Below, one piece after another: positions 1-21,190 of a DNA stretch of 64,000 bases. Location: assembly GCF_002854065.1 (NCBI RefSeq), contig NZ_CP024147.1. One strand, written 5' to 3'. Within the stretch, counting starts at the first letter, position 1. The number at the start of each line of letters is the position of its first letter. The notes beneath the pieces were generated by a model. That model made no database searches. It saw only the letters and a list, made by a program, of their open reading frames with translations, and was not told the origin of the DNA. The stretch is from Escherichia coli. Lineage in GTDB: Bacteria; Pseudomonadota; Gammaproteobacteria; Enterobacterales; Enterobacteriaceae. The position numbers were made by a program, and so were the translations under genes.

Positions 1-445
1 GCAGCGGATAAAGTTCATCCGGCCAGTCATCCGGCAGCACCAGACGGCGTTCATCCGGCAGCCCTACCGGAATCAAACCGTACATATCGCGCACTTCGCG
101 CTCGCCCCACACCGCCGCCGGAACGCGCGGCGTCACGGACGGATACTCCGGTTTGTTGGCATCAACTTCGACGCGAACCGTTACCCAACACTTGGTGCCC
201 TTCTCCATCGACAGCACGTAATAAACGGCGTAATGACCATTCAGTTTGCGTTCGTCGTTACCAAACAGTACCGACAGCCAGCCACCCTGTTTGTAGTAAA
301 GAAACTCCACCACTTCCGGCAGGTAGTTCACCTTTACGGTGACAGTCAGCTGATCTTTGGTCTGCCAGGCGTGGTCCAGCACGACGCCCGGAAATGCCTC
401 ATTCAGCGCGGCGAGATAATGTTGACCTAATTTTTCTTCAGACAT
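1..445 (-). CDS. hycE: Formate hydrogenlyase hydrogenase-3 large subunit, N-terminal part; gene continues past window start
   Basis: Reverse translation from ATG at 445 gives MSEEKLGQHYLAALNEAF..., recognised HycE N-terminus; no stop before window edge. Confidence 0.9.
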   Translation of the reverse strand, partial: MSEEKLGQHYLAALNEAFPGVVLDHAWQTKDQLTVTVKVNYLPEVVEFLYYKQGGWLSVLFGNDERKLNGHYAVYYVLSMEKGTKCWVTVRVEVDANKPEYPSVTPRVPAAVWGEREVRDMYGLIPVGLPDERRLVLPDDWPDELYPL

Positions 446-462
446 GCTCAAACTCTCTTTAA

Positions 463-1386: not shown

Positions 1387-1388
1387 TC

Positions 1389-3215
1389 TCAGGCTCCTCG
1401 TGAAACAATAATCACCACCAGTACCGCCAGTTCAACCAGCGCCATCCGGCGGAACAGCAACGCACTCCCCTCGCACTGCCAGCCCGGCACCAGCGACACC
1501 GGATTCAGCCATTTGCGCAGTTTCAGCACCGGCGCAAACGCCTGTTTCACCGGCATGGCAAAACCGTGAGCGGTAATCACCATTGATTTTTCGTGGTCGT
1601 AACCGCACACCCAGGCCGCACCGCGGGAACGCGATGGCAAACGATCGCCTTTGCAAATCGCCATAATGATGAATGGCAGCAGCGGGCAGGCAATCAGCAG
1701 CAACGTGATCATCGGTTGAGAAACGGTGGTGTTAGCAGGCTCCAGCGGCAGAGGTACAGCAGCAGACAGCATCGGCAGCAGCCACGGCGCAGCAACACCG
1801 CCAATTACGCAGCAAATCGCCAGTGCCACTACGCTTACGCTCATCAGGAGCGGCGCACAGGTGGCGTTTTCGGCTTCTTTGGTACGCGGCGCGCCGAGGA
1901 ACGTGACGCCATAGACTTTCGCCATACACATAACCGCCAGCGCACCGGTAATTGCCAGCCCCACAGCGAGCAGCGGCCCCAGCAGACGTGCAACAAACGC
2001 GCCACTATTGCTCAGTTTGAAAAAGGATTGATAGATAACCCATTCCCCGGCAAACCCGTTCAGCGGCGGCAGCGCAGCCATTGCCATCAACCCGACTAAC
2101 ATGGCGATGGAGATAACCGGCATTTTCTTGCCAATACCACCGAGTTTTTCGATATCGCGATGACCGGTACGGAACCAGACGCTCCCCGCCCCGAGGAACA
2201 GTACGCTTTTGAACAGGCTATGGTTAAGCAGATGGTACAGACCACCGACCAGGCCAAGAGCAATCAGCGCCGGTTGTTCGAGCGCGATACCCGTTACGCC
2301 AGCGCCCAGCCCCAGCAGGATAATGCCGATATTTTCCAGGGTGTGGTAAGCCAGTAGACGCTGGATGTTATGCTCCATCAGCGCATACAGACCACCGACG
2401 AACGCGGTGATCATACCGAGCACCAGCAGCGCGATCCCCCACCACAGCGGTGCATTACCACCCAGCAGCGACAGGGTTAAAATGCCCAGCAGGCCAATTT
2501 TCATGACTACCGTAGAAAACAACGCGGCAGCTGGCGCAGAGGCGTTCGCATGTGCCTGCGGCACCCAGCCGTGCAGCGGAATAATCCCGGCCAGCAGGCC
2601 AAAGCCAATCACACCGAGCAGCCAGATATCGGAACCGAGCGGCAGCTGTTGCATACGCATATCCAGCAGGCGCAGATCCAGCGTGCCGTAACGCTGCCAC
2701 AGCAGCCAGCAAGCAATCGCCAGCAGCAGAGTGCCAAGACGCCCCAGCGCAAACCACAGTTTGCCCTCTTTGCTGTTGTTGGTGAGGAACACCGCACACA
2801 AGGCCATGACTTCAGCCATTACCACGAACATGCCGAGGTTGCTGGCGATGACGGCGCAGACGGCGGCAGCCATCAACATATTGATCTGCAAGCCGTTGCA
2901 CTTCACCTGCGCGTGGCGATGCCAGTCAATGTTGTAGAGGCTGACAAACAGACCGCACAGACCGAGCGTAATCAGCCAAATCGCGTTAAGCGGAGAGATT
3001 TGCACATCGTAGCTTACCAGCGACAGCGCACCGCTCACGCCAACCGCGCCAGTCAGTACTGTGAAGCCCGCTGCTGCCGTATACAGACTACCAACCGCGC
3101 CGCCAATTCCGGCTATCCAGCCGCTTAGCGCCTTTTGAAAAGAAAAGAGAAATGCCAGAACAGCGGCGGCGACAAACCACGCCACGCCGCTATTGATCAG
3201 GGAAATTGCGCTCAT
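1389..3215 (-). CDS. hycC: Formate hydrogenlyase membrane subunit HycC (NuoL/MnhA-like)
   Basis: 608-aa ORF, antiporter-like membrane protein, operon context. Confidence 0.9.
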   Translation of the reverse strand: MSAISLINSGVAWFVAAAVLAFLFSFQKALSGWIAGIGGAVGSLYTAAAGFTVLTGAVGVSGALSLVSYDVQISPLNAIWLITLGLCGLFVSLYNIDWHRHAQVKCNGLQINMLMAAAVCAVIASNLGMFVVMAEVMALCAVFLTNNSKEGKLWFALGRLGTLLLAIACWLLWQRYGTLDLRLLDMRMQQLPLGSDIWLLGVIGFGLLAGIIPLHGWVPQAHANASAPAAALFSTVVMKIGLLGILTLSLLGGNAPLWWGIALLVLGMITAFVGGLYALMEHNIQRLLAYHTLENIGIILLGLGAGVTGIALEQPALIALGLVGGLYHLLNHSLFKSVLFLGAGSVWFRTGHRDIEKLGGIGKKMPVISIAMLVGLMAMAALPPLNGFAGEWVIYQSFFKLSNSGAFVARLLGPLLAVGLAITGALAVMCMAKVYGVTFLGAPRTKEAENATCAPLLMSVSVVALAICCVIGGVAAPWLLPMLSAAVPLPLEPANTTVSQPMITLLLIACPLLPFIIMAICKGDRLPSRSRGAAWVCGYDHEKSMVITAHGFAMPVKQAFAPVLKLRKWLNPVSLVPGWQCEGSALLFRRMALVELAVLVVIIVSRGA

Positions 3216-3823
3216 TTAGCCTCTCCACTTTGAGCCTGCTGAAACAAGGTGAGATCGCCAAAGTCCGTGTTAAAGGTCAGCTCACGCTTACGTTTGCTGA
3301 CGCGGGCGATATCGGTGTTATCCACCAGATGCAGGGCTTTAGTCGGGCACATCCGCACGCAGGCCGGACCTTGTTCATCAAAGCTACAAAGGTCACATTT
3401 GACGGCGATCGCGCGAATACCTGGCACCCAGTCAAGCAATGTGCTGACACGCGCCGGAGCAGGCGGTGCCGGTGGCGCTTTCGGGGTATTGGCGTTTGCC
3501 GGAATATCCAGCGGACGGCTGCCGGAAAATTCGATTGCGCCAAACGGGCAGGCGATGCCGCACAGTTTGCAGCTTACGCACAGACTTTCATTCAACTGCA
3601 CGGCCCCATCAACGCGGGTGATGGCGTTAACCGGGCAGACCACCGCGCAGGGTGCATCTTCACAGTGGTGACAGAGCTGCGGCGCAGATTCTTTTTCATT
3701 GAGCATCACTCTCAGGCGCGGCATTGATTGCAGGCCGTGCTGGCGATGCGTCTCTGAACAGGCGGCCTCACAAGTGTGGCAACCGATACAGAGCGTGGAG
3801 TCAGCAATTACAAAACGATTCAC
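3212..3823 (-). CDS. hycB: Formate hydrogenlyase 4Fe-4S ferredoxin-type subunit HycB
   Basis: 203-aa ORF with multiple CxxCxxCxxxCP motifs; overlaps hycC start. Confidence 0.9.
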   Translation of the reverse strand: MNRFVIADSTLCIGCHTCEAACSETHRQHGLQSMPRLRVMLNEKESAPQLCHHCEDAPCAVVCPVNAITRVDGAVQLNESLCVSCKLCGIACPFGAIEFSGSRPLDIPANANTPKAPPAPPAPARVSTLLDWVPGIRAIAVKCDLCSFDEQGPACVRMCPTKALHLVDNTDIARVSKRKRELTFNTDFGDLTLFQQAQSGEAK

Positions 3824-3871
3824 CAGGCATTCCTCAGGTGATTGTCATTTTTGACGAAAACATGCCGATGA

Positions 3872-3900
3872 AATGTCATTTTCGACACTCATCGACACGC
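3872..3900. promoter_or_regulatory. Repeated TCGACA motifs, candidate FhlA upstream activating sequence
   Basis: gtcattttcgacactcatcgacacg seen in hycB-hycA spacer; resembles motif at 4512-4550. Confidence 0.3.
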
Positions 3901-3947
3901 CCATCCCCAAACAGGCGTAACGCCTGCAAAACGGGCAAAGCCTCAGC

Positions 3948-4409
3948 TCATGCTGCCGGGCTTTGTCCCTTTACCAGTTGGCTTAAATTCACCGGCACAT
4001 TGTTTTCAATGGCGGTGTATAAGCTGTCGTAAACGCCAGCGATTTTTTCGAGATAGTGTTCCAGAACCTGTTCGCGATCGCGGATGTTGACCTTGCCATC
4101 AATCATGCCGTCAATGCTCAGTTGCGCCTGCGCAATCCGCTGTTTGTCTTCGCCATCTTTTGTTTCGACGTAATACTCGATGGTGTGGCTGTTAAAGCCA
4201 TCCGCCAGGGTGACGTAAATACGAAAATGTTCAAAAAGGACGAAACAGAGTTCTTTGTCCGGCGCGCAGCTCATGGCGTGATGCAGGCGCGCTTTCGATA
4301 ACGTGATCCCCTGAACCAGCGAATTGCAGTAGATGTGCCACTGGTCCTGTAGGCGACGATGCCGCTGTGCGATGTAATCGGCTTTCTCGCTTATTTCCCA
4401 AATAGTCAT
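3948..4409 (-). CDS. hycA: Formate hydrogenlyase regulatory protein HycA
   Basis: 153-aa ORF, first gene of hyc operon, divergent from hypA. Confidence 0.9.
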   Translation of the reverse strand: MTIWEISEKADYIAQRHRRLQDQWHIYCNSLVQGITLSKARLHHAMSCAPDKELCFVLFEHFRIYVTLADGFNSHTIEYYVETKDGEDKQRIAQAQLSIDGMIDGKVNIRDREQVLEHYLEKIAGVYDSLYTAIENNVPVNLSQLVKGQSPAA

Positions 4410-4445
4410 TGTCAGGTTACCCGTTTAACAGAGATGCCAGCTTTA

Positions 4446-4461
4446 AGCATTTTTTGTGCCA
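4446..4461 (-). promoter_or_regulatory. Candidate sigma54 promoter (-24 TGGCAC / -12 TGC) for hyc operon
   Basis: Minus strand reads TGGCACAAAAAATGCT upstream of hycA. Confidence 0.45.
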
Positions 4462-4511
4462 ACTTTTAATTTATTGTTATTAAAGCGATTTTTAAGATTT
4501 TGGTGAATTTC

Positions 4512-4550
4512 GTCGCCGTGTCGACGTGTCATTTCGACATCATCGACATT
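4512..4550. promoter_or_regulatory. Candidate FhlA upstream activating sequence, palindromic TGTCGA repeats
   Basis: gtgtcgacgtgtcatttcgacatcatcgaca between divergent sigma54 promoters. Confidence 0.4.
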
Positions 4551-4574
4551 ATTCACTGCAGGGATAATCAACAC

Positions 4575-4590
4575 TGGCACAATTATTGCT
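4575..4590 (+). promoter_or_regulatory. Candidate sigma54 promoter (TGGCAC-N5-TTGCT) for hyp operon
   Basis: TGGCACAATTATTGCT, about 30 nt upstream of hypA start. Confidence 0.5.
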
Positions 4591-4620
4591 TGTAGCTGGC
4601 AATAGTTAATGGGAGGCGAT

Positions 4621-4971
4621 ATGCACGAAATAACCCTCTGCCAACGGGCACTGGAATTGATCGAACAGCAGGCCGCAAAACACGGCGCAAAACGCGTAAC
4701 TGGGGTCTGGCTCAAAATTGGCGCATTTTCTTGTGTCGAAACCAGCTCTCTTGCCTTTTGTTTTGATCTGGTTTGCCGCGGCAGCGTGGCGGAAGGTTGT
4801 AAACTGCACCTCGAAGAACAAGAGGCCGAATGCTGGTGTGAAACATGCCAACAGTATGTGACGCTACTGACCCAGCGCGTCCGCCGCTGTCCACAGTGTC
4901 ATGGTGACATGCTACAGATTGTGGCAGACGACGGTTTACAGATTCGGCGGATAGAAATAGACCAGGAGTGA
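4621..4971 (+). CDS. hypA: Hydrogenase nickel incorporation protein HypA
   Basis: Starts MHEITLCQRALELIEQ, GGGAGG RBS, CxxC zinc motifs; 116 aa. Confidence 0.9.
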   Translation: MHEITLCQRALELIEQQAAKHGAKRVTGVWLKIGAFSCVETSSLAFCFDLVCRGSVAEGCKLHLEEQEAECWCETCQQYVTLLTQRVRRCPQCHGDMLQIVADDGLQIRRIEIDQE

Positions 4972-4974
4972 GCG

Positions 4975-5847
4975 ATGTGTACAACATGCGGTTGCGGTGA
5001 AGGCAACCTGTATATCGAGGGTGATGAACATAACCCTCATTCCGCGTTTCGTAGCGCGCCATTTGCCCCGGCGGCACGCCCGAAGATGAAAATCACCGGC
5101 ATTAAAGCGCCTGAATTTATCCCCAGCCAGACTGAAGAAGGCGACCTGCATTACGGTCATGGCGAAGCGGGCACTCACGCACCGGGCATGAGCCAGCGCC
5201 GGATGCTGGAAGTCGAAATTGACGTGCTGGACAAAAACAACCGTCTGGCTGAACGCAACCGCGCGCGCTTTGCTGCCCGCAAGCAACTGGTGCTCAACCT
5301 GGTTTCCAGCCCTGGTTCCGGTAAAACCACCCTGCTGACGGAAACCTTAATGCGCCTGAAAGACAGTGTTCCGTGCGCGGTTATTGAAGGTGACCAGCAA
5401 ACCGTGAACGATGCCGCACGCATTCGCGCTACCGGCACACCAGCGATTCAGGTGAATACCGGTAAAGGCTGCCATCTTGACGCACAGATGATTGCTGACG
5501 CCGCACCGCGCCTGCCACTGGACGATAACGGTATTCTGTTTATCGAAAACGTTGGCAACCTCGTATGCCCGGCGAGCTTCGATCTCGGTGAAAAACACAA
5601 AGTGGCGGTGCTTTCCGTTACCGAAGGTGAAGACAAACCGCTGAAATATCCGCATATGTTTGCCGCCGCCTCGCTGATGCTGCTCAACAAAGTTGACCTG
5701 TTGCCGTATCTCAACTTTGACGTTGAGAAGTGCATCGCCTGCGCCCGCGAAGTCAATCCAGAAATTGAAATCATCCTTATTTCCGCCACCAGCGGCGAAG
5801 GGATGGACCAGTGGCTGAACTGGCTGGAGACACAGCGATGTGCATAG
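4975..5847 (+). CDS. hypB: Hydrogenase maturation GTPase/nickel-binding protein HypB
   Basis: 290-aa ORF with N-terminal CxxCGC metal site and GSGKTT P-loop. Confidence 0.9.
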
Positions 5848-6110
5848 GCGTTCCCGGCCAGATCCGCACCATTGACGGTAACCAGGCGAAAGTCGACGTC
5901 TGCGGCATTCAGCGCGATGTCGATTTAACGTTAGTCGGCAGCTGCGATGAAAACGGTCAGCCGCGCGTGGGCCAGTGGGTACTGGTTCACGTTGGCTTTG
6001 CCATGAGCGTAATTAATGAAGCCGAAGCACGCGACACTCTCGACGCCTTACAAAACATGTTTGACGTTGAGCCGGATGTCGGCGCGCTGTTGTATGGCGA
6101 GGAAAAATAA
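5838..6110 (+). CDS. hypC: Hydrogenase maturation chaperone HypC
   Basis: [11 protein letters not shown]-terminus; start chosen inside the longer ORF; 90 aa. Confidence 0.85.
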
Positions 6111-7231
6111 TGCGTTTTGTTGATGAATATCGCGCGCCGGAACAGGTGATGCAGTTAATTGAGCATCTGCGCGAACGTGCTTCACATCTCTCTTACACAG
6201 CCGAACGCCCTCTGCGGATTATGGAAGTGTGTGGCGGTCATACTCACGCTATCTTTAAATTCGGCCTCGACCAGTTACTGCCGGAAAACGTTGAGTTTAT
6301 CCACGGTCCGGGTTGCCCGGTGTGCGTACTGCCGATGGGTAGAATCGACACCTGCGTGGAGATTGCCAGCCATCCGGAAGTCATCTTCTGTACCTTTGGC
6401 GACGCCATGCGCGTACCAGGGAAACAGGGATCGCTGTTGCAGGCAAAAGCACGCGGTGCCGATGTGCGTATCGTTTACTCGCCGATGGATGCGTTGAAAC
6501 TGGCGCAGGAGAATCCAACCCGCAAAGTGGTGTTCTTCGGCTTAGGTTTTGAAACCACCATGCCGACCACCGCTATCACTCTGCAACAGGCGAAAGCGCG
6601 TGATGTGCAGAATTTTTACTTCTTCTGCCAGCACATTACGCTTATCCCGACGCTTCGCAGTTTGCTGGAACAGCCGAATAACGGTATCGACGCGTTCCTC
6701 GCGCCGGGGCACGTTAGTATGGTTATCGGCACTGATGCCTATAATTTTATCGCCAGCGATTTTCATCGTCCGCTGGTGGTCGCTGGTTTCGAACCCCTTG
6801 ATCTACTGCAAGGCGTGGTGATGCTGGTGGAGCAGAAAATAGCGGCCCACAGCAAGGTAGAGAATCAGTATCGTCGGGTGGTACCGGATGCCGGTAACCT
6901 GCTGGCGCAACAGGCGATTGCCGATGTGTTCTGTGTCAACGGCGACAGCGAATGGCGCGGCTTAGGCGTGATTGAATCTTCTGGCGTGCACCTGACGCCG
7001 GATTATCAACGATTCGATGCCGAAGCACATTTCCGCCCGGCACCGCAGCAGGTCTGCGATGACCCGCGCGCGCGTTGTGGTGAGGTATTAACGGGCAAAT
7101 GTAAGCCGCATCAATGCCCGCTGTTTGGTAACACCTGTAATCCTCAAACCGCATTTGGTGCACTGATGGTCTCCTCCGAAGGAGCGTGCGCCGCGTGGTA
7201 TCAGTATCGTCAGCAGGAGAGTGAAGCGTGA
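6110..7231 (+). CDS. hypD: Hydrogenase maturation Fe-S protein HypD
   Basis: 373-aa ORF, conserved CGxH and CPVC motifs. Confidence 0.9.
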   Translation: MRFVDEYRAPEQVMQLIEHLRERASHLSYTAERPLRIMEVCGGHTHAIFKFGLDQLLPENVEFIHGPGCPVCVLPMGRIDTCVEIASHPEVIFCTFGDAMRVPGKQGSLLQAKARGADVRIVYSPMDALKLAQENPTRKVVFFGLGFETTMPTTAITLQQAKARDVQNFYFFCQHITLIPTLRSLLEQPNNGIDAFLAPGHVSMVIGTDAYNFIASDFHRPLVVAGFEPLDLLQGVVMLVEQKIAAHSKVENQYRRVVPDAGNLLAQQAIADVFCVNGDSEWRGLGVIESSGVHLTPDYQRFDAEAHFRPAPQQVCDDPRARCGEVLTGKCKPHQCPLFGNTCNPQTAFGALMVSSEGACAAWYQYRQQESEA

Positions 7232-8238
7232 ATAATATCCAACTCGCCCACGGCAGCGGCGGCCAGGCGATGCAGCAATTAATCAACAGCCTGTTTTTGG
7301 AAGCCTTTGCCAACCCGTGGCTGGCAGAGCAGGAAGATCAGGCACGTCTTGATCTGGCGCAACTGATAGCGGAAGGCGACCGTCTGGCGTTCTCCACCGA
7401 CAGTTACGTTATTGACCCGCTGTTCTTCCCTGGCGGTAATATCGGCAAGCTGGCGATTTGCGGCACAGCCAATGACGTTGCGGTCAGTGGTGCCATTCCG
7501 CGCTATCTCTCCTGTGGCTTTATCCTCGAAGAAGGATTGCCGATGGAGACACTGAAAGCCGTAGTGACCAGCATGGCAGAAACCGCCCGCACGGCAGGCA
7601 TTGCCATCGTTACTGGCGATACTAAAGTGGTGCAGCGCGGCGCGGCAGATAAACTGTTTATCAACACCGCGGGCATGGGCGCAATTCCGGTGAATATTCA
7701 CTGGGGCGCACAGACGCTAACCGCAGGCGATGTATTGCTGGTTAGCGGTACACTCGGCGACCACGGGGCGACTATCCTTAACCTGCGTGAGCAGCTGGGG
7801 CTGGATGGCGAACTGGTCAGCGACTGCGCGGTGCTGACGCCCCTTATTCAGACGCTGCGTGACATTCCCGGCGTGAAAGCGCTGCGTGATGCCACCCGTG
7901 GTGGTGTAAACGCGGTGGTTCATGAGTTCGCGGCAGCCTGCGGTTGCGGTATTGAAATTTCTGAATCAGCGCTGCCGGTTAAACCTGCCGTGCGCGGCGT
8001 TTGCGAATTGCTGGGACTGGACGCCCTGAACTTTGCCAACGAAGGCAAACTGGTGATCGCCGTTGAACGCAACGCGGCAGAGCAAGTGCTGGCAGCGTTA
8101 CATTCCCATCCACTGGGGAAAGACGCGGCGCTGATTGGTGAAGTGGTGGAACGTAAAGGTGTTCGTCTTGCCGGTCTGTATGGCGTGAAACGAACCCTCG
8201 ATTTACCACACGCCGAACCGCTTCCGCGTATATGCTAA
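7228..8238 (+). CDS. hypE: Hydrogenase maturation protein HypE
   Basis: 336-aa ORF, AIR-synthase-like, overlaps hypD stop. Confidence 0.9.
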   Translation: MNNIQLAHGSGGQAMQQLINSLFLEAFANPWLAEQEDQARLDLAQLIAEGDRLAFSTDSYVIDPLFFPGGNIGKLAICGTANDVAVSGAIPRYLSCGFILEEGLPMETLKAVVTSMAETARTAGIAIVTGDTKVVQRGAADKLFINTAGMGAIPVNIHWGAQTLTAGDVLLVSGTLGDHGATILNLREQLGLDGELVSDCAVLTPLIQTLRDIPGVKALRDATRGGVNAVVHEFAAACGCGIEISESALPVKPAVRGVCELLGLDALNFANEGKLVIAVERNAAEQVLAALHSHPLGKDAALIGEVVERKGVRLAGLYGVKRTLDLPHAEPLPRIC

Positions 8239-8311
8239 TAAAATTCTAAATCTCCTATAGTTAGTCAATGACCTTTTGCACCGCTTTGCGGTGCTTTCCT
8301 GGAAGAACAAA

Positions 8312-10390
8312 ATGTCATATACACCGATGAGTGATCTCGGACAGCAAGGGTTGTTCGACATCACTCGGACACTATTGCAGCAGCCCGATCTGGCCTCGCT
8401 GTGTGAGGCTCTTTCGCAACTGGTAAAGCGTTCTGCGCTCGCCGACAACGCGGCTATTGTGTTGTGGCAAGCGCAGACTCAACGTGCGTCTTATTACGCA
8501 TCGCGTGAAAAAGACACCCCCATTAAATATGAAGACGAAACTGTTCTGGCACACGGTCCGGTACGCAGCATTTTGTCGCGCCCTGATACGCTGCATTGCA
8601 GTTACGAAGAATTTTGTGAAACCTGGCCGCAGCTGGCCGCAGGTGGGCTATACCCAAAATTTGCTCACTATTGCCTGATGCCACTGGCGGCGGAAGGGCA
8701 TATTTTTGGTGGCTGTGAATTTATTCGTTATGACGATCGCCCCTGGAGCGAAAAAGAGTTCAATCGTCTGCAAACATTTACGCAGATCGTTTCTGTCGTC
8801 ACCGAACAAATCCAGAGTCGCGTCGTTAACAATGTCGACTATGAGTTGTTATGCCGGGAACGCGATAACTTCCGCATCCTGGTCGCCATCACCAACGCGG
8901 TGCTTTCCCGCCTGGATATGGACGAACTGGTCAGCGAAGTCGCCAAAGAAATCCATTACTATTTCGATATTGACGATATCAGTATCGTCTTACGCAGCCA
9001 CCGTAAAAACAAACTCAACATCTACTCCACTCACTATCTTGATAAACAGCATCCCGCCCACGAACAGAGCGAAGTCGATGAAGCCGGAACCCTCACCGAA
9101 CGCGTGTTCAAAAGTAAAGAGATGCTGCTGATTAATCTCCACGAGCGGGATGATTTAGCCCCCTATGAACGCATGTTGTTCGATACCTGGGGCAACCAGA
9201 TTCAAACCTTGTGCCTGTTACCGCTGATGTCTGGCGACACCATGCTGGGCGTGCTGAAACTGGCGCAATGTGAAGAGAAAGTGTTTACCACTACCAATCT
9301 GAATTTACTGCGCCAGATTGCCGAACGTGTGGCAATCGCTGTCGATAACGCCCTCGCCTATCAGGAAATCCATCGTCTGAAAGAACGGCTGGTTGATGAA
9401 AACCTCGCCCTGACCGAGCAGCTCAACAATGTTGATAGTGAATTTGGCGAGATTATTGGCCGCAGCGAAGCCATGTACAGCGTGCTTAAACAAGTTGAAA
9501 TGGTGGCGCAAAGTGACAGTACCGTGCTGATCCTCGGTGAAACTGGCACGGGTAAAGAGCTGATTGCCCGTGCTATCCATAATCTCAGTGGGCGTAATAA
9601 TCGCCGCATGGTCAAAATGAACTGCGCGGCGATGCCTGCCGGATTGCTGGAGAGCGATCTGTTTGGTCATGAACGTGGGGCTTTTACTGGTGCCAGCGTC
9701 CAGCGTATCGGTCGTTTTGAACTGGCGGATAAAAGCTCCCTGTTCCTCGACGAAGTGGGCGATATGCCACTGGAGTTACAGCCGAAGTTGCTGCGTGTAT
9801 TGCAGGAACAGGAGTTTGAACGCCTCGGCAGCAACAAAATCATTCAGACGGACGTGCGTCTAATCGCCGCGACTAACCGCGATCTGAAAAAAATGGTCGC
9901 CGACCGAGAGTTCCGTAGCGATCTCTATTACCGCCTGAACGTATTTCCGATCCACCTGCCGCCACTACGCGAGCGTCCGGAAGATATTCCGCTGCTGGCG
10001 AAAGCCTTTACCTTCAAAATTGCCCGTCGTCTGGGGCGCAATATCGACAGCATTCCTGCCGAGACGCTGCGCACCTTGAGCAACATGGAGTGGCCGGGTA
10101 ACGTACGCGAACTGGAAAACGTCATTGAGCGCGCGGTATTGCTAACACGCGGCAACGTGCTGCAGCTGTCATTGCCAGATATTGCTTTACCGGAGCCTGA
10201 AACGCCGCCTGCCGCAACGGTTGTCGCTCAGGAGGGCGAAGATGAATATCAGTTGATTGTTCGCGTGCTGAAAGAAACTAACGGCGTGGTTGCCGGGCCT
10301 AAAGGCGCTGCGCAACGTCTGGGGCTGAAACGCACGACCCTGCTGTCACGGATGAAGCGACTGGGAATTGATAAATCGGCATTGATTTAA
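8312..10390 (+). CDS. fhlA: Formate hydrogenlyase transcriptional activator FhlA (sigma54-dependent)
   Basis: Start at MSYTPMSDL inside longer ORF; GETGTGKE Walker A, GAFTGA motif, C-terminal HTH; 692 aa. Confidence 0.9.
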   Translation: MSYTPMSDLGQQGLFDITRTLLQQPDLASLCEALSQLVKRSALADNAAIVLWQAQTQRASYYASREKDTPIKYEDETVLAHGPVRSILSRPDTLHCSYEEFCETWPQLAAGGLYPKFAHYCLMPLAAEGHIFGGCEFIRYDDRPWSEKEFNRLQTFTQIVSVVTEQIQSRVVNNVDYELLCRERDNFRILVAITNAVLSRLDMDELVSEVAKEIHYYFDIDDISIVLRSHRKNKLNIYSTHYLDKQHPAHEQSEVDEAGTLTERVFKSKEMLLINLHERDDLAPYERMLFDTWGNQIQTLCLLPLMSGDTMLGVLKLAQCEEKVFTTTNLNLLRQIAERVAIAVDNALAYQEIHRLKERLVDENLALTEQLNNVDSEFGEIIGRSEAMYSVLKQVEMVAQSDSTVLILGETGTGKELIARAIHNLSGRNNRRMVKMNCAAMPAGLLESDLFGHERGAFTGASVQRIGRFELADKSSLFLDEVGDMPLELQPKLLRVLQEQEFERLGSNKIIQTDVRLIAATNRDLKKMVADREFRSDLYYRLNVFPIHLPPLRERPEDIPLLAKAFTFKIARRLGRNIDSIPAETLRTLSNMEWPGNVRELENVIERAVLLTRGNVLQLSLPDIALPEPETPPAATVVAQEGEDEYQLIVRVLKETNGVVAGPKGAAQRLGLKRTTLLSRMKRLGIDKSALI

Positions 10391-10434
10391 CAGATGTGGT
10401 TATACTCGATCAACATTCAATGAAAGGAGGCAGT

Positions 10435-10863
10435 ATGGCAGTTTCAGCAAGAAATCAATTAACCGGAACAGTTAGCGCAGTAGCAATGGGCGCGGTGAAT
10501 GACGAAGTAGAACTGACGCTGGCAGGTGGTGCAAAACTGGTGGCGATTGTTACACACAGCAGCCAACAGGCTCTGGGGCTGGCAAAAGGGAAAGAAGCGA
10601 TTGCCCTGATTAAAGCCCCGTGGGTAACGCTGGCCACGGAAGACTGTGGACTGAAATTCTCTGCTCGCAACCAGTTTGCTGGCAGCGTGTCGACAATCAC
10701 CGAAGGCGCAGTGAACGCCACTGTCCATATCAAAACGGATGCGGGTTTTGAAATTGTGGCAGTGGTAACAAATGAAAGTCAGGATGAAATGAAACTTACC
10801 ACTGGCTCACGCGTTATTGCGTTGATCAAAGCATCAGCAATCCTGATTGCTACCAAAGCGTAA
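10435..10863 (+). CDS. Molbindin (Mop) protein with two tandem TOBE domains
   Basis: aaaggagg RBS before ATG at 10435; 142 aa with internal duplication of ~65-aa TOBE-like repeat (SARNQ..G.VS..). Confidence 0.7.
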   Translation: MAVSARNQLTGTVSAVAMGAVNDEVELTLAGGAKLVAIVTHSSQQALGLAKGKEAIALIKAPWVTLATEDCGLKFSARNQFAGSVSTITEGAVNATVHIKTDAGFEIVAVVTNESQDEMKLTTGSRVIALIKASAILIATKA

Positions 10864-10874
10864 GCGCCTTATTT

Positions 10875-10897
10875 GCCGGAGAGTATGGCTCTCCGGC
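10875..10897 (+). terminator. Hairpin followed by T-rich tract, likely terminator of molbindin gene
   Basis: gccggagag-tatgg-ctctccggc then agatttatttcttt. Confidence 0.4.
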
Positions 10898-10901
10898 AGA
10901 T

Positions 10902-11246
10902 TTATTTCTTTGGACGATATTTTTCTGGCAACTCCGGCACCGGACGCTTGTCATCGATGAGATGACGCACGGTTAAGATCGGATGACGCCACAGCATTCT
11001 CGGCCCGGCCCAACGCATAATCTGTTTCATCTCTTCACGCTTTGCAGGCTGGTAACAGTGCACCGGACACTGCTTACAGGCTGGCTTCTCTTCGCCGAAC
11101 ACACATTTATCCAGCCGCTTTTGCGCGTAAACAAACAACGCCTCGTAATGCTCCGGCTCCGCTGACGCCTGCGGGCATTTCGCTTGATAAAGATCGATCA
11201 TTTTTTTAATCGTCAGTTTTTCACGAGAGATACGCTTGCCGGACAT
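10902..11246 (-). CDS. ygbA: YgbA, nitrous-oxide-stimulated-promoter family protein
   Basis: 114-aa Cys-rich ORF, recognised YgbA sequence, convergent with molbindin gene. Confidence 0.8.
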   Translation of the reverse strand: MSGKRISREKLTIKKMIDLYQAKCPQASAEPEHYEALFVYAQKRLDKCVFGEEKPACKQCPVHCYQPAKREEMKQIMRWAGPRMLWRHPILTVRHLIDDKRPVPELPEKYRPKK

Positions 11247-11532
11247 ACTGCCTCCACCTCATTAAGATGCATTTATATTACAACTTAATCTTAAAGGGCA
11301 CTATGACTCTAAAGAAGAAGGGTTAGCCAACCGATACAATTTTGCGTACTTGCTTCATAAGCATCACGCAAAAGCTGCAAAACAGCATCTTTCCCGGAAC
11401 CAGCATCAAGAACTCGCCGTTCGCTTCTTCCCCTGAAATGATTAACTCCGGTATCATGTGCGCCTTATGTGATTACAACGAAAATAAAAACCATCACACC
11501 CCATTTAATATCAGGGAACCGGACATAACCCC

Positions 11533-14094
11533 ATGAGTGCAATAGAAAATTTCGACGCCCATACGCCCATGATGCAGCAGTATCTCAAGCTGAAAGCCCA
11601 GCATCCCGAGATCCTGCTGTTTTACCGGATGGGTGATTTTTATGAACTGTTTTATGACGACGCAAAACGCGCGTCGCAACTGCTGGATATTTCACTGACC
11701 AAACGCGGTGCTTCGGCGGGAGAGCCGATCCCGATGGCGGGGATTCCCTACCATGCGGTGGAAAACTACCTCGCCAAACTGGTGAATCAGGGCGAGTCCG
11801 TTGCCATCTGCGAACAAATTGGCGATCCGGCGACCAGCAAAGGTCCGGTTGAGCGCAAAGTTGTGCGTATCGTTACGCCAGGCACCATCAGCGATGAAGC
11901 CCTGTTGCAGGAGCGTCAGGACAACCTGCTGGCGGCTATCTGGCAGGACAGCAAAGGTTTCGGCTACGCGACGCTGGATATCAGCTCCGGGCGTTTTCGC
12001 CTGAGCGAACCGGCTGACCGGGAAACGATGGCGGCAGAACTGCAACGCACTAATCCTGCGGAATTGCTGTATGCAGAAGATTTTGCTGAAATGTCGTTAA
12101 TTGAAGGCCGTCGCGGCCTGCGCCGTCGCCCGCTGTGGGAGTTTGAAATCGACACCGCGCGCCAGCAGTTGAATCTGCAATTTGGGACCCGCGATCTGGT
12201 CGGTTTTGGCGTCGAGAACGCGCCGCGCGGACTTTGTGCTGCCGGTTGTCTGTTGCAGTATGCGAAAGATACCCAACGTACGACTCTGCCGCATATTCGT
12301 TCCATCACCATGGAACGTGAGCAGGACAGCATCATTATGGATGCCGCGACGCGTCGTAATCTGGAAATCACCCAGAACCTGGCGGGTGGTGCGGAAAATA
12401 CGCTGGCTTCTGTGCTCGACTGCACCGTCACGCCGATGGGCAGCCGTATGCTGAAACGCTGGCTGCATATGCCAGTGCGCGATACCCGCGTGTTGCTTGA
12501 GCGCCAGCAAACTATTGGCGCATTGCAGGATTTCACCGCCGAGTTACAGCCGGTACTGCGTCAGGTGGGCGATCTGGAACGTATTCTGGCGCGTCTGGCG
12601 TTGCGTACTGCTCGCCCGCGCGATCTGGCCCGTATGCGCCATGCTTTCCAGCAACTGCCGGAACTGCGCGCGCAGTTAGAAAATGTCGATAGTGCACCGG
12701 TACAGGCGCTGCGTGAGAAGATGGGCGAGTTTGCCGAACTGCGCGATCTGCTGGAGCGGGCAATCATCGACACACCACCAGTGCTGGTACGCGACGGTGG
12801 TGTTATCGCACCGGGCTATAACGAAGAGCTGGATGAGTGGCGGGCGCTGGCTGACGGCGCGACCGATTATCTGGAGCGTCTGGAAATCCGCGAGCGTGAA
12901 CGTACCGGCCTGGACACGCTGAAAGTCGGATTTAACGCGGTGCATGGTTATTACATTCAGATCAGCCGTGGACAAAGCCATCTGGCCCCCATCAACTACA
13001 TGCGTCGCCAGACGCTGAAAAATGCCGAGCGCTACATTATTCCAGAGCTAAAAGAGTACGAAGATAAAGTTCTCACCTCAAAAGGCAAAGCACTGGCACT
13101 GGAAAAACAGCTTTATGAAGAGCTGTTCGACCTGCTGTTGCCGCATCTGGAAGCGTTGCAACAGAGCGCAAGCGCGCTGGCAGAACTTGATGTGCTGGTT
13201 AACCTGGCGGAGCGGGCCTATACCCTGAACTACACCTGCCCGACTTTTATTGATAAACCGGGTATTCGCATCACCGAAGGCCGCCATCCGGTGGTTGAAC
13301 AGGTGCTGAATGAGCCGTTTATCGCCAACCCGCTGAACCTGTCGCCACAGCGTCGCATGTTGATCATTACCGGTCCGAATATGGGCGGTAAAAGTACCTA
13401 TATGCGCCAGACCGCACTGATTGCGCTGATGGCCTACATCGGCAGCTATGTACCGGCACAAAAAGTTGAGATTGGACCTATCGATCGCATCTTTACCCGC
13501 GTAGGGGCAGCGGATGATCTGGCATCCGGGCGTTCAACCTTTATGGTGGAAATGACCGAAACCGCCAATATTTTACATAACGCCACCGAATACAGTCTGG
13601 TGTTAATGGATGAGATCGGGCGTGGAACGTCCACTTACGATGGTCTGTCACTGGCATGGGCGTGCGCGGAAAATCTGGCGAATAAGATTAAGGCATTGAC
13701 GCTGTTTGCTACCCACTATTTCGAGCTGACCCAGTTACCGGAGAAAATGGAAGGCGTCGCCAACGTGCATCTCGATGCACTGGAGCACGGCGACACCATT
13801 GCCTTTATGCATAGCGTGCAGGATGGCGCGGCGAGCAAAAGCTACGGCCTGGCGGTTGCAGCTCTGGCGGGCGTGCCAAAAGAGGTGATTAAGCGCGCAC
13901 GGCAAAAACTGCGTGAGCTGGAAAGTATTTCGCCGAACGCCGCCGCTACACAAGTGGATGGTACGCAAATGTCTTTGCTGTCAGTACCGGAAGAAACCTC
14001 GCCAGCGGTCGAAGCTCTGGAAAATCTCGACCCGGATTCACTAACTCCGCGTCAGGCGCTGGAATGGATTTATCGCTTGAAGAGTCTGGTGTAA
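11533..14094 (+). CDS. mutS: DNA mismatch repair protein MutS
   Basis: 853-aa ORF starting [27 protein letters not shown] Walker A. Confidence 0.95.
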
Positions 14095-14199: not shown

Positions 14200-14856
14200 A
14201 TGCCATCTACACGCTATCAAAAAATCAATGCCCATCACTATCGCCATATATGGGTCGTTGGTGATATTCATGGTGAATATCAGTTATTACAATCCCGCTT
14301 ACATCAACTCTCTTTTTTCCCCGAAACCGACTTACTTATTTCTGTCGGCGATAATATTGATCGTGGGCCGGAGAGTCTTGACGTCCTGCGCCTGCTAAAC
14401 CAGCCCTGGTTTATCTCCGTTAAAGGCAACCACGAAGCAATGGCGCTGGATGCGTTCGCGACCGGCGATGGCAATATGTGGCTTGCCAGCGGTGGTGACT
14501 GGTTCTTTGAGTTAAATGATATGGAACAAAAAGAAGCTATAGGTCTATTGCTGAAATTTCATCAACTTCCACATATTATTGAAATTACCAACGACATTAT
14601 AAAATATGTCATCGCACATGCGGATTATCCGGGCAATGAATATCTCTTTGGCGGACAAATAGCGGAGAGCGAATTACTTTGGCCTGTTGATCGTGTGCAG
14701 AAATCTCTTAATGGCGAGTTACAACAAATAAACGGCGCTGATTATTTTATATTTGGACATATGATGCTTGATAACATTCAGACGTTCGCTAACCAGATTT
14801 ATATTGATACCGGATCGCCGAAAAGCGGGCGGCTGTCATTTTATAAAATAAAGTAG
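14200..14856 (+). CDS. pphB: Serine/threonine protein phosphatase 2
   Basis: 218-aa ORF with GDIHG and GDNIDRG metallophosphatase motifs. Confidence 0.85.
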   Translation: MPSTRYQKINAHHYRHIWVVGDIHGEYQLLQSRLHQLSFFPETDLLISVGDNIDRGPESLDVLRLLNQPWFISVKGNHEAMALDAFATGDGNMWLASGGDWFFELNDMEQKEAIGLLLKFHQLPHIIEITNDIIKYVIAHADYPGNEYLFGGQIAESELLWPVDRVQKSLNGELQQINGADYFIFGHMMLDNIQTFANQIYIDTGSPKSGRLSFYKIK

Positions 14857-14906
14857 TCTCATGCTTCTTCTGTGAAGCATGAGTAACCCGGTGTTATTGC
14901 AGGCCA

Positions 14907-15704
14907 TTATTCATTTTTCGCTACCAGCAAAGAGAGATCCTGCTTCGCCAGCGCGCGACTGGCACTCTCCGGCAAACCGTCGTCTGTAATAATCTGATCA
15001 AACTCGCTTAATGGTAACGCCAGCCATGTCGCCACCTGACCATATTTCGTCGCATCACAGACCAAAACTCGCTGGCGGCTGGCACTGGCAATCGCCCGTT
15101 TCACCGTGACTTTATCTTCCGCTGGCGTAGAAATCCCCCGCAAACTCCATGACGATGCAGAAATAAAAGCCTGATCAATCATCAGGCTGCGCAGCATGGT
15201 CGCAGCGGCTTCCCCGACACAGGAACGGTTTTCCCGACACACTGCACCGCCAGTGTGAATAATTGTGCAATTACTGTTGTCGAGCAAGTAGTCCGCAATA
15301 ACGAAATCGTTTGTGACCACAGTCAGTGACTCCATGTGAATCAGATGCTGTGCTATCGCTAACGTGGTCGTTCCCGCATCCAGATAGATACAACTTCCCG
15401 GCTGAACAAGACTTGCCGCCAGCTTGCCAATAGCCGCTTTTTGCGTCATTGCCAGCGCAGTTTTTACCTGATGAGAAGGTTCATGCGCCACGCGTCCCGG
15501 AGACTGGACGCCTCCGGATACCAGCACAACGGCTCCCTGCTGCTCCAGTTTTTGTAAATCCCGACGAATGGTCATATGTGACACATTCATTCTGTCCGTT
15601 AGTTCAGCAATACTGACAATGCCTTTTTCAGCTACCATCTCAAGGATGATTTGGCGACGCTCTACGGGTATCAACTTTTGCTCCTTCCTTTGTCCTGCTG
15701 ACAT
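14907..15704 (-). CDS. ygbI: DeoR-family transcriptional regulator YgbI
   Basis: 265-aa ORF, N-terminal HTH and DeoR C-terminal sugar-binding fold; exact start uncertain. Confidence 0.8.
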   Translation of the reverse strand: MSAGQRKEQKLIPVERRQIILEMVAEKGIVSIAELTDRMNVSHMTIRRDLQKLEQQGAVVLVSGGVQSPGRVAHEPSHQVKTALAMTQKAAIGKLAASLVQPGSCIYLDAGTTTLAIAQHLIHMESLTVVTNDFVIADYLLDNSNCTIIHTGGAVCRENRSCVGEAAATMLRSLMIDQAFISASSWSLRGISTPAEDKVTVKRAIASASRQRVLVCDATKYGQVATWLALPLSEFDQIITDDGLPESASRALAKQDLSLLVAKNE

Positions 15705-15869
15705 TCTACGCTATTTGCCTGCGAAACGTGCGCGGCGCAACTAACGCTTAGTTCACATAAAATAACACACAATGTTAATTTTTGTGAATCAGCTCACCAT
15801 ATCGTTATCTTCCAGCGCTTATATTCACAATATCAAACAAAATATCACTTAAATTAACAATGAGAGCAG

Positions 15870-16777
15870 ATGAAAACGGGATCTAGTTTCATGTCGGTAT
15901 CGTTGGCTTAGGGTCAATGGGAATGGGAGCAGCACTGTCATGTGTCCGCGCAGGTCTTTCTACCTGGGGCGCAGACCTGAACAGCAATGCCTGCGCTACG
16001 TTGAAAGAGGCAGGTGCTTGCGGGGTTTCTGATAACGCCGCGACGTTTGCCGAAAAACTGGACGCTCTGCTGGTGCTGGTGGTCAATGCGGCCCAGGTTA
16101 AACAGGTGCTGTTTGGTGAAACAGGCGTTGCACAACATCTGAAACCCGGTACGGCAGTAATGGTTTCTTCCACTATCGCTAGTGCTGATGCGCAAGAAAT
16201 TGCTACCGCTCTGGCTGGATTCGATCTGGAAATGCTGGATGCGCCAGTTTCTGGTGGTGCAGTAAAAGCCGCTAACGGTGAAATGACTGTCATGGCCTCC
16301 GGTAGCGATATTGCCTTTGAACGACTGGCACCCGTGCTGGAAGCCGTTGCCGGAAAAGTTTATCGCATAGGTGCAGAACCGGGACTAGGTTCGACCGTAA
16401 AAATTATTCACCAGTTGTTAGCGGGCGTACATATTGCTGCCGGAGCCGAAGCGATGGCACTTGCAGCCCGTGCGGGGATCCCGCTGGATGTGATGTATGA
16501 CGTCGTGACCAATGCCGCCGGAAATTCCTGGATGTTCGAAAACCGGATGCGTCATGTGGTGGATGGCGATTACACCCCGCATTCAGCCGTCGATATTTTT
16601 GTTAAGGATCTTGGTCTGGTTGCCGATACAGCCAAAGCCCTGCACTTCCCGCTGCCATTGGCCTCAACAGCATTGAATATGTTCACCAGCGCCAGTAACG
16701 CGGGTTACGGGAAAGAAGACGATAGCGCAGTTATCAAGATTTTCTCTGGCATCACTCTACCGGGAGCGAAATCATGA
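15870..16777 (+). pseudogene. ygbJ: L-threonate dehydrogenase-like gene with a frameshift at codon 6
   Basis: ATG at 15870 reads MKTGS then hits TAG at 15909; FHVGIVGLGSMG Rossmann motif continues in another frame directly after a TAG. Confidence 0.6.
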
Positions 16778-18036
16778 TCAAGATTGGCGTTATCGCCGAT
16801 GATTTTACCGGCGCGACGGATATCGCCAGTTTTCTGGTGGAAAACGGTCTACCAACGGTACAAATTAACGGTGTTCCAACAGGTAAAATGCCGGAAGCAA
16901 TCGACGCACTGGTGATCAGCCTGAAAACGCGTTCCTGTCCGGTGGTTGAAGCCACACAGCAATCGCTGGCGGCTCTGAGCTGGTTGCAACAGCAAGGTTG
17001 CAAACAGATCTATTTCAAATACTGCTCTACTTTCGACAGTACGGCTAAAGGTAATATCGGCCCGGTTACCGATGCATTAATGGATGCTCTCGACACGCCG
17101 TTTACGGTCTTCTCTCCGGCCCTGCCGGTCAACGGACGTACGGTTTATCAGGGGTATTTGTTCGTAATGAATCAACTGCTGGCCGAATCCGGGATGCGCC
17201 ATCACCCGGTAAATCCCATGACCGACAGCTATCTTCCCCGTCTGGTTGAAGCGCAATCCACAGGGCGCTGCGGCGTCGTTTCGGCACATGTTTTCGAACA
17301 AGGTGTGGATGCCGTTCGTCAAGAGCTGGCTCGCTTACAGCAAGAGGGCTACCGCTACGCGGTGCTTGATGCGCTGACCGAACACCATCTGGAAATTCAG
17401 GGAGAAGCCTTGCGCGATGCCCCACTGGTAACGGGCGGTTCTGGTCTGGCGATTGGCCTGGCCCGGCAGTGGGCGCAAGAAAACGGTAACCAGGCTCGCA
17501 AAGCAGGGCATCCGCTCGCTGGGCGCGGCGTAGTGCTCTCCGGTTCATGCTCTCAAATGACCAACCGCCAGGTGGCACATTACCGTCAAATTGCACCAGC
17601 CCGTGAAGTTGATGTGGCACGCTGCCTCTCAATTGAAACTCTGGCCGCTTATGCACACGAACTGGCAGAGTGGGTTCTGGGCCAGGAAAGTGTACTTGCT
17701 CCACTGGTTTTTGCCACCGCCAGCACTGACGCATTGGCAGCAATTCAACAGCAATACGGTGCACAAAAAGCCAGTCAGGCAGTAGAAACACTGTTTTCTC
17801 AACTAGCGGCGCGGTTAGCAGCGGAAGGCGTGACACGCTTTATTGTCGCAGGCGGTGAGACCTCCGGCGTAGTCACACAGAGCCTGGGAATAAAAGGGTT
17901 TCATATTGGCCCAACCATTTCCCCCGGCGTGCCGTGGGTAAACGCACTGGATAAGCCTGTCTCACTCGCCCTTAAATCTGGCAACTTCGGTGATGAAGCC
18001 TTTTTTTCACGAGCCCAAAGAGAGTTTTTATCATGA
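16774..18036 (+). CDS. ygbK: 3-oxo-tetronate kinase (DUF1537 family)
   Basis: 420-aa ORF starting MIKIGVIADDFTGATD; overlaps ygbJ stop and ygbL start. Confidence 0.8.
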   Translation: MIKIGVIADDFTGATDIASFLVENGLPTVQINGVPTGKMPEAIDALVISLKTRSCPVVEATQQSLAALSWLQQQGCKQIYFKYCSTFDSTAKGNIGPVTDALMDALDTPFTVFSPALPVNGRTVYQGYLFVMNQLLAESGMRHHPVNPMTDSYLPRLVEAQSTGRCGVVSAHVFEQGVDAVRQELARLQQEGYRYAVLDALTEHHLEIQGEALRDAPLVTGGSGLAIGLARQWAQENGNQARKAGHPLAGRGVVLSGSCSQMTNRQVAHYRQIAPAREVDVARCLSIETLAAYAHELAEWVLGQESVLAPLVFATASTDALAAIQQQYGAQKASQAVETLFSQLAARLAAEGVTRFIVAGGETSGVVTQSLGIKGFHIGPTISPGVPWVNALDKPVSLALKSGNFGDEAFFSRAQREFLS

Positions 18037-18671
18037 GCGATTTCGCAAAAGTAGAGCAGTCTTTGCGAGAGGAGATGACGCGGATTGCCAGTTCATTCTT
18101 TCAGCGCGGCTATGCAACCGGTTCGGCTGGCAATCTGTCGCTGCTTTTACCTGACGGGAATTTACTGGCGACACCGACAGGTTCATGCCTGGGCAATCTC
18201 GAGCCGCAGCGGCTTTCCAAAGTCGCCGCGGATGGCGAATGGTTAAGTGGTGACAAACCCTCGAAAGAGGTGCTCTTTCATCTGGCGCTGTATCGCAACA
18301 ATCCGCGCTGTAAAGCGGTGGTGCATTTGCACAGCACATGGTCGACGGCGCTTTCCTGCCTGCAAGGGCTGGACAGCAGCAACGTTATTCGTCCGTTCAC
18401 ACCATACGTGGTGATGCGGATGGGAAATGTCCCGCTGGTGCCTTATTACCGACCGGGCGATAAACGCATCGCACAGGATCTGGCGGAACTGGCAGCAGAC
18501 AATCAGGCTTTTTTACTGGCAAATCATGGCCCAGTGGTTTGCGGTGAAAGCCTGCAAGAAGCCGCCAACAATATGGAAGAGCTGGAGGAAACGGCAAAGC
18601 TGATTTTTATTCTCGGTGACCGCCCGATCCGTTATCTGACCGCAGGTGAAATTGCGGAATTAAGGAATTAA
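18033..18671 (+). CDS. ygbL: Class II aldolase/adducin-family decarboxylase
   Basis: 212-aa ORF, aldolase-II fold signature, operon context. Confidence 0.8.
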
Positions 18672-18675
18672 TGCA

Positions 18676-19452
18676 ATGCCTCGTTTTGCAGCTAATTTAT
18701 CCATGATGTTCACCGAAGTGCCTTTTATTGAACGCTTCGCCGCAGCGCGAAAAGCCGGGTTCGATGCTGTGGAATTTCTGTTTCCCTATAACTACTCCAC
18801 CCTGCAAATCCAAAAGCAACTGGAGCAAAACCATCTGACACTGGCGCTGTTCAATACCGCTCCCGGAGATATTAATGCGGGGGAATGGGGATTATCCGCC
18901 CTTCCCGGACGTGAGCACGAAGCACACGCAGACATCGACCTGGCACTGGAATATGCATTGGCGCTCAATTGTGAACAAGTCCATGTAATGGCAGGCGTCG
19001 TGCCCGCTGCCGAAGATGCTGAACGGTACCGGGCAGTATTTATCGATAATCTCCGCTACGCTGCCGACCGCTTTGCGCCACACGGCAAGCGAATATTAGT
19101 TGAAGCACTCAGCCCCGGCATTAAGCCTCATTATCTCTTCTCCAGCCAGTATCAGGCACTGGCTATTGTTGAAGAAGTTGCGCGAGATAACGTGTTTATT
19201 CAACTAGATACTTTTCATGCGCAAAAAGTAGATGGCAACCTGACGCATTTAATCCGCGACTACGCCGGGAAATATGCGCACGTACAAATTGCCGGACTAC
19301 CTGATCGACATGAACCGGACGATGGAGAAATCAACTATCCGTGGCTGTTCCGCCTGTTCGATGAGGTGGGATATCAGGGCTGGATCGGTTGTGAATATAA
19401 ACCTCGTGGCCTCACCGAAGAAGGACTTGGCTGGTTTGACGCCTGGCGCTAA
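18676..19452 (+). CDS. ygbM: Hydroxypyruvate-isomerase-like TIM-barrel isomerase
   Basis: 258-aa ORF, xylose-isomerase-like TIM barrel. Confidence 0.8.
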
Positions 19453-19540
19453 TTCGTTAAATCCCTAATTACAACGTACCCATACATCCCCCCATCTACG
19501 GATGGGGTAGGTTAACTATAACTTTCAGACAGGGTTTCCC

Positions 19541-21180: not shown

Positions 21181-21190
21181 CTTCTTCTCC

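Follow-up and report, generated by a model that had tools for sequence, protein, structure and literature searches.

A predicted ModG-type di-Mop molbindin gene beside fhlA in Escherichia coli, apparently deleted in the K-12 lineage

The closest described relatives of the gene analyzed here are the di-Mop protein ModG of Azotobacter vinelandii, the single-domain Mop and Tub proteins, and the C-terminal di-Mop domain of ModE. The oxyanion sites of Tub have been reported in detail. The type-1 site is formed by the backbone of Ala20-Val21-Asn22, and the type-2 site by Ser4, Arg6, Lys60 and Ala61 together with Ser40 from the neighboring subunit; these tungstate/molybdate contacts are said to resemble those in ModG, Mop and ModE (PMC11980592). 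A survey of gut genomes in the same work counted 5,379 two-TOBE proteins labeled 'TudG/ModG' in 148 species representatives (PMC11980592). The textbook account of molybdenum homeostasis in Escherichia coli (ModABC, ModE and molybdenum cofactor (Moco) synthesis) derives from K-12, a strain without the gene described below, here called mop.

The window analyzed is a 64,000-nucleotide stretch of E. coli DNA (RefSeq assembly GCF_002854065.1, contig NZ_CP024147.1). An ORF coding for 142 aa runs in it from an ATG at 10435 to a stop codon at 10861-10863, between fhlA and ygbA. The features of the locus are as follows.

8312-10390, same strand as mop: fhlA, stop codon at 10388-10390
10401-10406, plus strand: candidate -10 box TATACT (part of GGTTATACT) in the fhlA-mop spacer, a conserved TATA-like element of putative function
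10423-10430, plus strand: Shine-Dalgarno sequence AAAGGAGG, read from the sequence, 4 nt before the ATG
10435-10863, plus strand: mop/modG-like CDS, 142 aa plus stop, predicted di-Mop (tandem TOBE) molbindin, WP_000301062.1
10871-10911, plus strand: intrinsic terminator, a 14-bp stem-loop at 10871-10901 and a T-rich tail at 10902-10911, with TTATTTCTTT after the hairpin
10902-11246, minus strand: ygbA, convergent with mop
11533-14094: mutS, beyond ygbA

The RefSeq annotation of the same contig has a CDS at exactly 10435-10863, named "TOBE domain-containing protein", and the 142-aa ORF that a sequence-only reading had placed between fhlA and ygbA is thus real. The range given in that reading, 10396-10863, matches the maximal ORF (155 aa from a GTG at 10396); its end stands and its start does not, the actual start being the ATG at 10435. 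The strong ribosome-binding site and the terminator hairpin of the gene's own that the reading had pointed out are both present, and the GGAGG upstream of the ATG is kept in nearly all orthologous loci. The neighborhood in the window consists of hycE-A (minus strand), hypA-E, fhlA, mop, ygbA (minus strand), a gene for a hypothetical 44-aa protein and mutS. There are no mod genes within the RefSeq annotation of the window, and linkage of mop to a mod transport locus was not found there.

Domain searches returned two stretches each for Pfam TOBE PF03459 (E 8.8e-35) and for the NCBIfam Mop model TIGR00638 (E 4.1e-42, 142 bits against a cutoff of 55), and these libraries gave no domain besides the two TOBE/Mop units. 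The two halves of the protein align to each other without internal gaps and are identical at 30/72 positions. The top PDB match was A. vinelandii ModG (1h9j_A, E 5e-33), which is colinear with the query (residues 1-140 against 4-143 of the chain) and 49% identical; the E. coli ModE di-Mop domain (E 1e-15) ranked next, followed by the single-domain Tub and Mop. The AlphaFold2 model of the product has a pLDDT of 96.2 and a pTM of 0.87. A Foldseek search with this predicted model returned the ModG structures 1h9j/1h9k/1h9m as the best matches (TM 0.94-0.95, rmsd 1.3-1.4 Å; against 1h9j, TM 0.95 and rmsd 1.3 Å over 142 columns) and the ModE di-Mop domain as the second (TM 0.88-0.90). The predicted fold is the double β-barrel (OB-like) Mop fold. 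The "stand-alone tandem-TOBE molbindin" of the sequence-only reading is therefore an apt description, and the protein is more precisely a ModG-type di-Mop protein.

The domains and the residues predicted to contact the oxyanion are as follows.

10444-10632, plus strand: Mop/TOBE domain 1, aa 4-66, Pfam best stretch, residues mapped against Tub and ModG; predicted contacts S4, R6, A20-V21-N22, T40, K60 and A61
10654-10851, plus strand: Mop/TOBE domain 2, aa 74-139, from an ungapped alignment to Tub (9beb/9bem) and both ModG domains; predicted contacts S76, R78, A92-V93-N94, T112, K132 and A133

All contact positions reported for Tub are kept in both domains of the ungapped alignment, with threonine replacing Ser40 as it does in ModG. 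The type-1 motif GAVN is present in both domains; in ModG it reads GAVNAEV in both. The contact columns are invariant or at least 90% conserved among the orthologues, two distant betaproteobacterial homologues and ModG. Three other assignments were considered and rejected. The ModE transcription factor model NF007957 matches at profile positions 124-261 of 263 only, with 88 bits against a cutoff of 369, and the protein has only 142 aa. The ModC/ABC-transporter models TIGR02142 and NF008355 cover only their last ~60 profile positions and score far under their cutoffs. The ModE and ModC models thus match by their C-terminal TOBE parts alone and below cutoff, which leaves the protein without a DNA-binding or ATPase domain. 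A single-domain Mop or Tub has one ~70-aa Mop unit per chain, whereas the present chain joins two of them. As judged from the sequence and the predicted model, the product shows all the defining features of the ModG/di-Mop class that can be tested, and the mod-locus context alone is not shared.

Conservation of the gene was measured between and within species. The length is exactly 142 aa in 46/46 orthologues that could be read from related loci (47 with an identical copy in E. coli ST2747). Comparison with 20 loci of other species and genera gave dN/dS values of 0.03-0.10, and synonymous sites were saturated in 8 further loci. The window allele differs from that of E2348/69 at 17 nucleotides and from that of ST131 at 15; all differences are synonymous third-position changes with 0 amino acid changes, and both proteins are identical to the window product and share its WP accession. 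The probability of such an all-synonymous outcome under neutrality is ~1e-10 to 1e-9 (25.5% synonymous sites). A full-length CDS is found in 1889/1892 E. coli copies. These results identify mop as a live gene under strong purifying selection.

Complete E. coli genomes were scanned with the mop CDS and with a 701-nt query that also covered its flanks. The CDS was found in 1892/5426 genomes (35%), each time as a single chromosomal copy. About 65% of the genomes lack it, so the gene is dispensable. Among the named anchor strains, O25b:H4-ST131 and E2348/69 are carriers and K-12 MG1655 is a non-carrier. One plasmid record matched part of the query, in the flank only; the CDS was never on plasmids. 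In E. coli FDAARGOS_1285 (locus 1501-2431), mop is cut short after ~46 codons by an IS1A element, beyond which nlpD is the next gene. Apparently ygbA, mutS and the complete mutS-rpoS region, rpoS included, have been lost from this strain, which would make it a likely mutator and an rpoS-null deletion.

The sequence-only reading did not recall such a gene in K-12 at this position, and a direct comparison bears this out. MG1655 lacks the gene and is 473 bp shorter at the site. Neither of the two outcomes that would have refuted that reading, an identical gene at this site in MG1655 or a missing TOBE domain, was obtained.

10391-10863: 473-bp segment absent from K-12 MG1655 by pairwise alignment, equivalently described as 10389-10861

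The segment is bounded by the TAA of fhlA and the TAA of mop, and in K-12 the fhlA TAA runs directly into the terminator hairpin. The mop-negative genomes sampled across the ranking all have the same 234-235-nt layout (18/18, 27% coverage). The order hypE-fhlA-mop is conserved in E. albertii and in Citrobacter, Klebsiella, Raoultella, Kluyvera, Enterobacter and Kosakonia, which argues for a deletion in K-12 rather than an insertion here. The sequence after fhlA in K-12 is also homologous to the terminator that follows mop in the window, which likewise argues that mop is ancestral at the site and was deleted in K-12. On these sequence comparisons, the absence from K-12 is a lineage-specific deletion, and what appears to be the ancestral mop terminator now lies directly after fhlA. 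The deletion was probably mediated by the TAA...TAA microhomology.

The junction itself (window 10864-10960 against 1592-1700 of the K-12 locus) is unusually diverged between the two haplotypes. Compensatory changes distinguish the terminator stems (GCCGGAGAG/CTCTCCGGC in the window and GCCGGACAG/CTGTCCGGC in K-12), and an 8-nt indel makes YgbA 117 aa long in K-12 versus 114 aa. The K-12 sequence after fhlA is closer to the Citrobacter amalonaticus version than to that of mop-positive E. coli. The diverged junction and this resemblance suggest, at the sequence level, either old haplotypes or recombinational import. Over 10300-11000, E. coli ST2747 matches the window at 100% identity, but over 1-14094 at only 97.8%; given this contrast, the fhlA-mop-ygbA region looks like a recombination mosaic between lineages.

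ST2747 also differs from the window elsewhere. The variable mutS-rpoS region of the window (14200-23766) holds two gene sets, the K-12-type one of pphB and ygbI-ygbN and another of the hydroxyarylic acid decarboxylase BCD genes and a MarR regulator; in ST2747 the region holds the decarboxylase BCD/MarR set only, plus an extra hypothetical gene. The iap-cysH interval of the window (34946-35488) has no type I-E cas genes in the RefSeq annotation, only hok/gef at 35072-35224, and ST2747 has cas3-cas2 between iap and cysH. RefSeq further annotates ygbN as a pseudogene with an internal stop (19542-20906) and an IS1B element that splits an SDR oxidoreductase gene (47396-48958).

Related loci were scanned with one genome per species, which gave 49 loci. 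The fhlA gene is immediately upstream on the same strand in 36/49, with a spacer of 44-105 nt; this arrangement was found in E. albertii, a cryptic Escherichia clade, Citrobacter, Raoultella, Klebsiella, Kluyvera, Enterobacter, Pluralibacter, Yokenella, Lelliottia and Kosakonia. The gene directly upstream is hypE in three more loci, two from Phytobacter and one from a Kosakonia sp. Downstream, ygbA is often convergent with mop. The gene stands alone among unrelated genes, away from fhlA and hyp, in Serratia, Cedecea and Edwardsiella. The divergence of mop grows with taxonomic distance.

The Salmonella enterica copy (6001-6429 and 4025-4453 on two contigs) is 89% identical and is not beside fhlA. 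Its island neighbors are an IS21 IstB fragment and genes for a TetR protein, a DUF417 protein and MsrPQ-like proteins (Oxidored_molyb and cytochrome b), and mop may be mobile or accessory in Salmonella. A placement of the Salmonella gene at the fhlA/SPI-1 border was considered and dropped, as the one copy that could be placed (P0020) sits in a different island.

Two related loci bear on the expression of the gene. In Raoultella sp. BIGb0138 (~4900-5447), neither hyp nor an intact fhlA is left and the flanking genes are asc-like and sitABC-like, yet a remnant of the fhlA 3'-end (...LSRMKRLGINKNELV*) remains directly upstream of mop. In Lelliottia (upstream of 5001), a terminator-like hairpin separates fhlA from mop and is followed by a TATAAA box. 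Both loci point to independent mop expression signals in the 3' end of fhlA or in the spacer.

The terminator hairpin that follows mop in the window has a folding energy of -23.3 kcal/mol (z = -4.25), none of 200 shuffled sequences folds as well, and its T-tail shares positions with the stop codon of ygbA on the opposite strand. The 44-nt fhlA-mop spacer contains no terminator-like site, and read-through from the hyp-fhlA transcript is therefore possible. Most genera have a box resembling GG(C/T)TATA(C/A)(T/A) ~30-45 nt before the ATG, also where a gene other than fhlA precedes mop. A consensus scan of 10000-11600 returned no sigma-70 promoter, and an acceptable -35 element at a spacing of 16-18 nt is likewise lacking. 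The gene may nevertheless be able to be transcribed on its own, with TATACT as the candidate -10. TATAT-N7-TAYAT is a ModE half-site pattern. The conserved GGTTATACT box and the sequence after it were compared with this pattern and with RTTATGT-N8-RCATAAY, and a ModE operator was rejected there, since the genera do not share the second half-site and no palindrome is formed. No RNA family, such as the Moco riboswitch, was detected in 10000-11700 (Rfam, E ≤ 1).

The reading that we consider probable is that mop encodes a functional ModG-type di-Mop molbindin that acts as a trimeric molybdate/tungstate buffer, and that the gene was ancestral at the fhlA-ygbA site in Enterobacteriaceae and was deleted in the K-12 lineage. 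The product would be a small cytoplasmic protein that consists of two tandem Mop/TOBE β-barrels only. By analogy with ModG and with the hexameric Mop and Tub, three di-Mop chains would form a pseudo-hexamer with room for as many as eight molybdate (or tungstate) oxyanions. The GAVN backbone would form two type-1 sites on the three-fold axis, and Ser and Arg of the SARN motif, Thr40 and the KA motif would form six type-2 sites at domain interfaces. Such a particle would buffer or store intracellular molybdate for molybdenum-cofactor synthesis. Transcription would proceed by read-through from fhlA, from an own promoter at the TATA-like box, or both. In the lineage that contains K-12, the 473-bp deletion between the two TAA stops would have removed mop and left the old mop terminator serving fhlA. 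The proposed trimer, stoichiometry, metal preference and physiological role are drawn by analogy from published work on ModG, Mop and Tub (Delarbre 2001 and Mouncey 1995, as relayed in PMC11980592). Tub binds both molybdate and tungstate (PMC11980592), and the sequence gives no preference for the E. coli protein.

A regulatory role would have the molbindin act as a molybdenum sensor through protein contact, for example with FhlA, the formate regulon, ModE or ModC, and couple hydrogenlyase/FDH-H expression to molybdenum. The conserved same-strand position just 3' of fhlA (36/49 loci, with the short spacers given above) is in line with this, as is the rank of the ModE di-Mop domain, a regulator's sensing module, as second-best structural match. 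Transcription of hyc and fdhF in K-12 reportedly depends on molybdate, according to work by Self and Shanmugam; K-12, however, controls its formate regulon by molybdenum without mop. The protein also lacks a DNA-binding or other effector domain, is nearer to ModG (49%) than to ModE (~34%), keeps the GAVN type-1 motif that is missing from ModE, and survives without a nearby fhlA in Phytobacter, Raoultella sp., Serratia and Edwardsiella. A regulatory molbindin is accordingly an unlikely reading. A tungstate-directed, TudG-like function is also doubtful, at about the same level. The protein would then sequester tungstate that enters through ModABC, and either spare Moco enzymes from mis-metallation or supply tungsten. 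To our knowledge, neither TupA nor WOR occurs in E. coli, and the closest characterized relative is a molybdate protein, ModG. Tungsten use is judged by the presence of TupA or WOR in the gut-genome work, in which di-TOBE 'TudG/ModG' proteins are often predicted to be tungsten-linked and the Tub and Mop sites are described as binding tungstate and molybdate alike (PMC11980592).

The opposite history, in which K-12 has the ancestral state and mop is a horizontally inserted cassette here, or in which mop is a decaying, functionless relic, is very improbable and already largely refuted. The presence or absence of the gene as a precise 473-bp unit, its patchy distribution in 35% of complete E. coli genomes and the Salmonella copy in a different island beside an IS21 fragment could be read in this way. 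Against it, the fhlA-mop-ygbA order is found in E. albertii, a cryptic Escherichia clade, Citrobacter, Klebsiella, Kluyvera, Enterobacter and others with a divergence that tracks taxonomy, and the post-mop terminator is retained in K-12. The GC content of the mop region is unremarkable (~0.50-0.51), there are no flanking repeats or mobility genes around mop in the window, the substitutions within the species are all synonymous and 1889/1892 copies are intact. The location next to fhlA, the activator of a formate regulon that includes the molybdenum enzyme FDH-H, is coherent with the buffer role and may be historical. A functional link of the mop product to FDH-H, which the sequence-only reading had offered as biologically coherent, is a plausible hypothesis. 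The adjacency to fhlA is no proof that the two are specifically linked, since mop is also kept in other genomic settings and is missing from two thirds of E. coli genomes. A further version, in which the di-Mop protein is the ancestral molybdate-sensing or delivery partner of formate-hydrogenlyase, was kept next to fhlA for that reason and either gates FhlA-driven transcription or passes molybdate to Moco synthesis for FDH-H, is improbable. If it were true, the loss of mop in the K-12 lineage would have rewired molybdenum control of the formate regulon onto ModE, and K-12-based models of molybdenum regulation would mislead for B2/ExPEC strains and most Enterobacteriaceae.

The gene is of an ordinary and known kind, is already annotated by RefSeq in ~1,900 complete E. 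coli genomes and is not a new discovery. The literature searched contained no experimental paper on binding, oligomerization or expression of an enterobacterial orthologue, and absence there is not proof. The importance of the gene is modest and it challenges no concept. About one third of complete E. coli genomes and many genera of Enterobacteriaceae nevertheless encode this strongly conserved, predicted cytoplasmic molybdate-binding protein. It could alter molybdenum buffering, tungstate tolerance and the supply of molybdenum to molybdoenzymes such as FDH-H and nitrate reductase in the gut or urinary tract, and it is a cheap target for knockout and biochemistry.

Among the described systems, the 'TudG/ModG' architecture of human-gut genomes (IPR005116 x2) has the same stand-alone two-TOBE layout; it comes from a survey that is bioinformatic only and has no locus-level or E. 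coli-specific description (PMC11980592). Each half of the E. coli protein corresponds without gaps to the ~70-aa unit of Clostridium pasteurianum MopII (1gug), Sporomusa ovata Mop (1fr3) and Eubacterium limosum Tub (9beb). Tub is 40% identical to the halves and has the ligand-contact positions in common with them. The Mop and Tub subunits have one domain and form homohexamers, whereas two domains are fused here, so that a trimer would be the equivalent particle. The C-terminal di-Mop part of ModE (1h9r/1h9s/1o7l/1b9m), whose gene is in the same genome, shares the double-Mop fold and the type-2 residues. ModE differs in its N-terminal winged-helix DNA-binding domain, its dimeric state and its lack of the GAVN type-1 motif, and the identity is ~34%. 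The closest counterpart is ModG, with two tandem Mop/TOBE domains in colinear order, 142 versus ~142-145 aa, and the motifs SARN, GAVN, T(x)ES and KA(S/P) kept in both domains of the E. coli protein; the ModG trimer and its eight-molybdate stoichiometry would apply to the E. coli protein by analogy only. The two genes differ in their setting. In A. vinelandii, a nitrogen fixer, modG belongs to the mod (molybdate transport) locus, whereas the E. coli gene comes after fhlA, where the hyp-fhlA cluster of a non-diazotroph ends.
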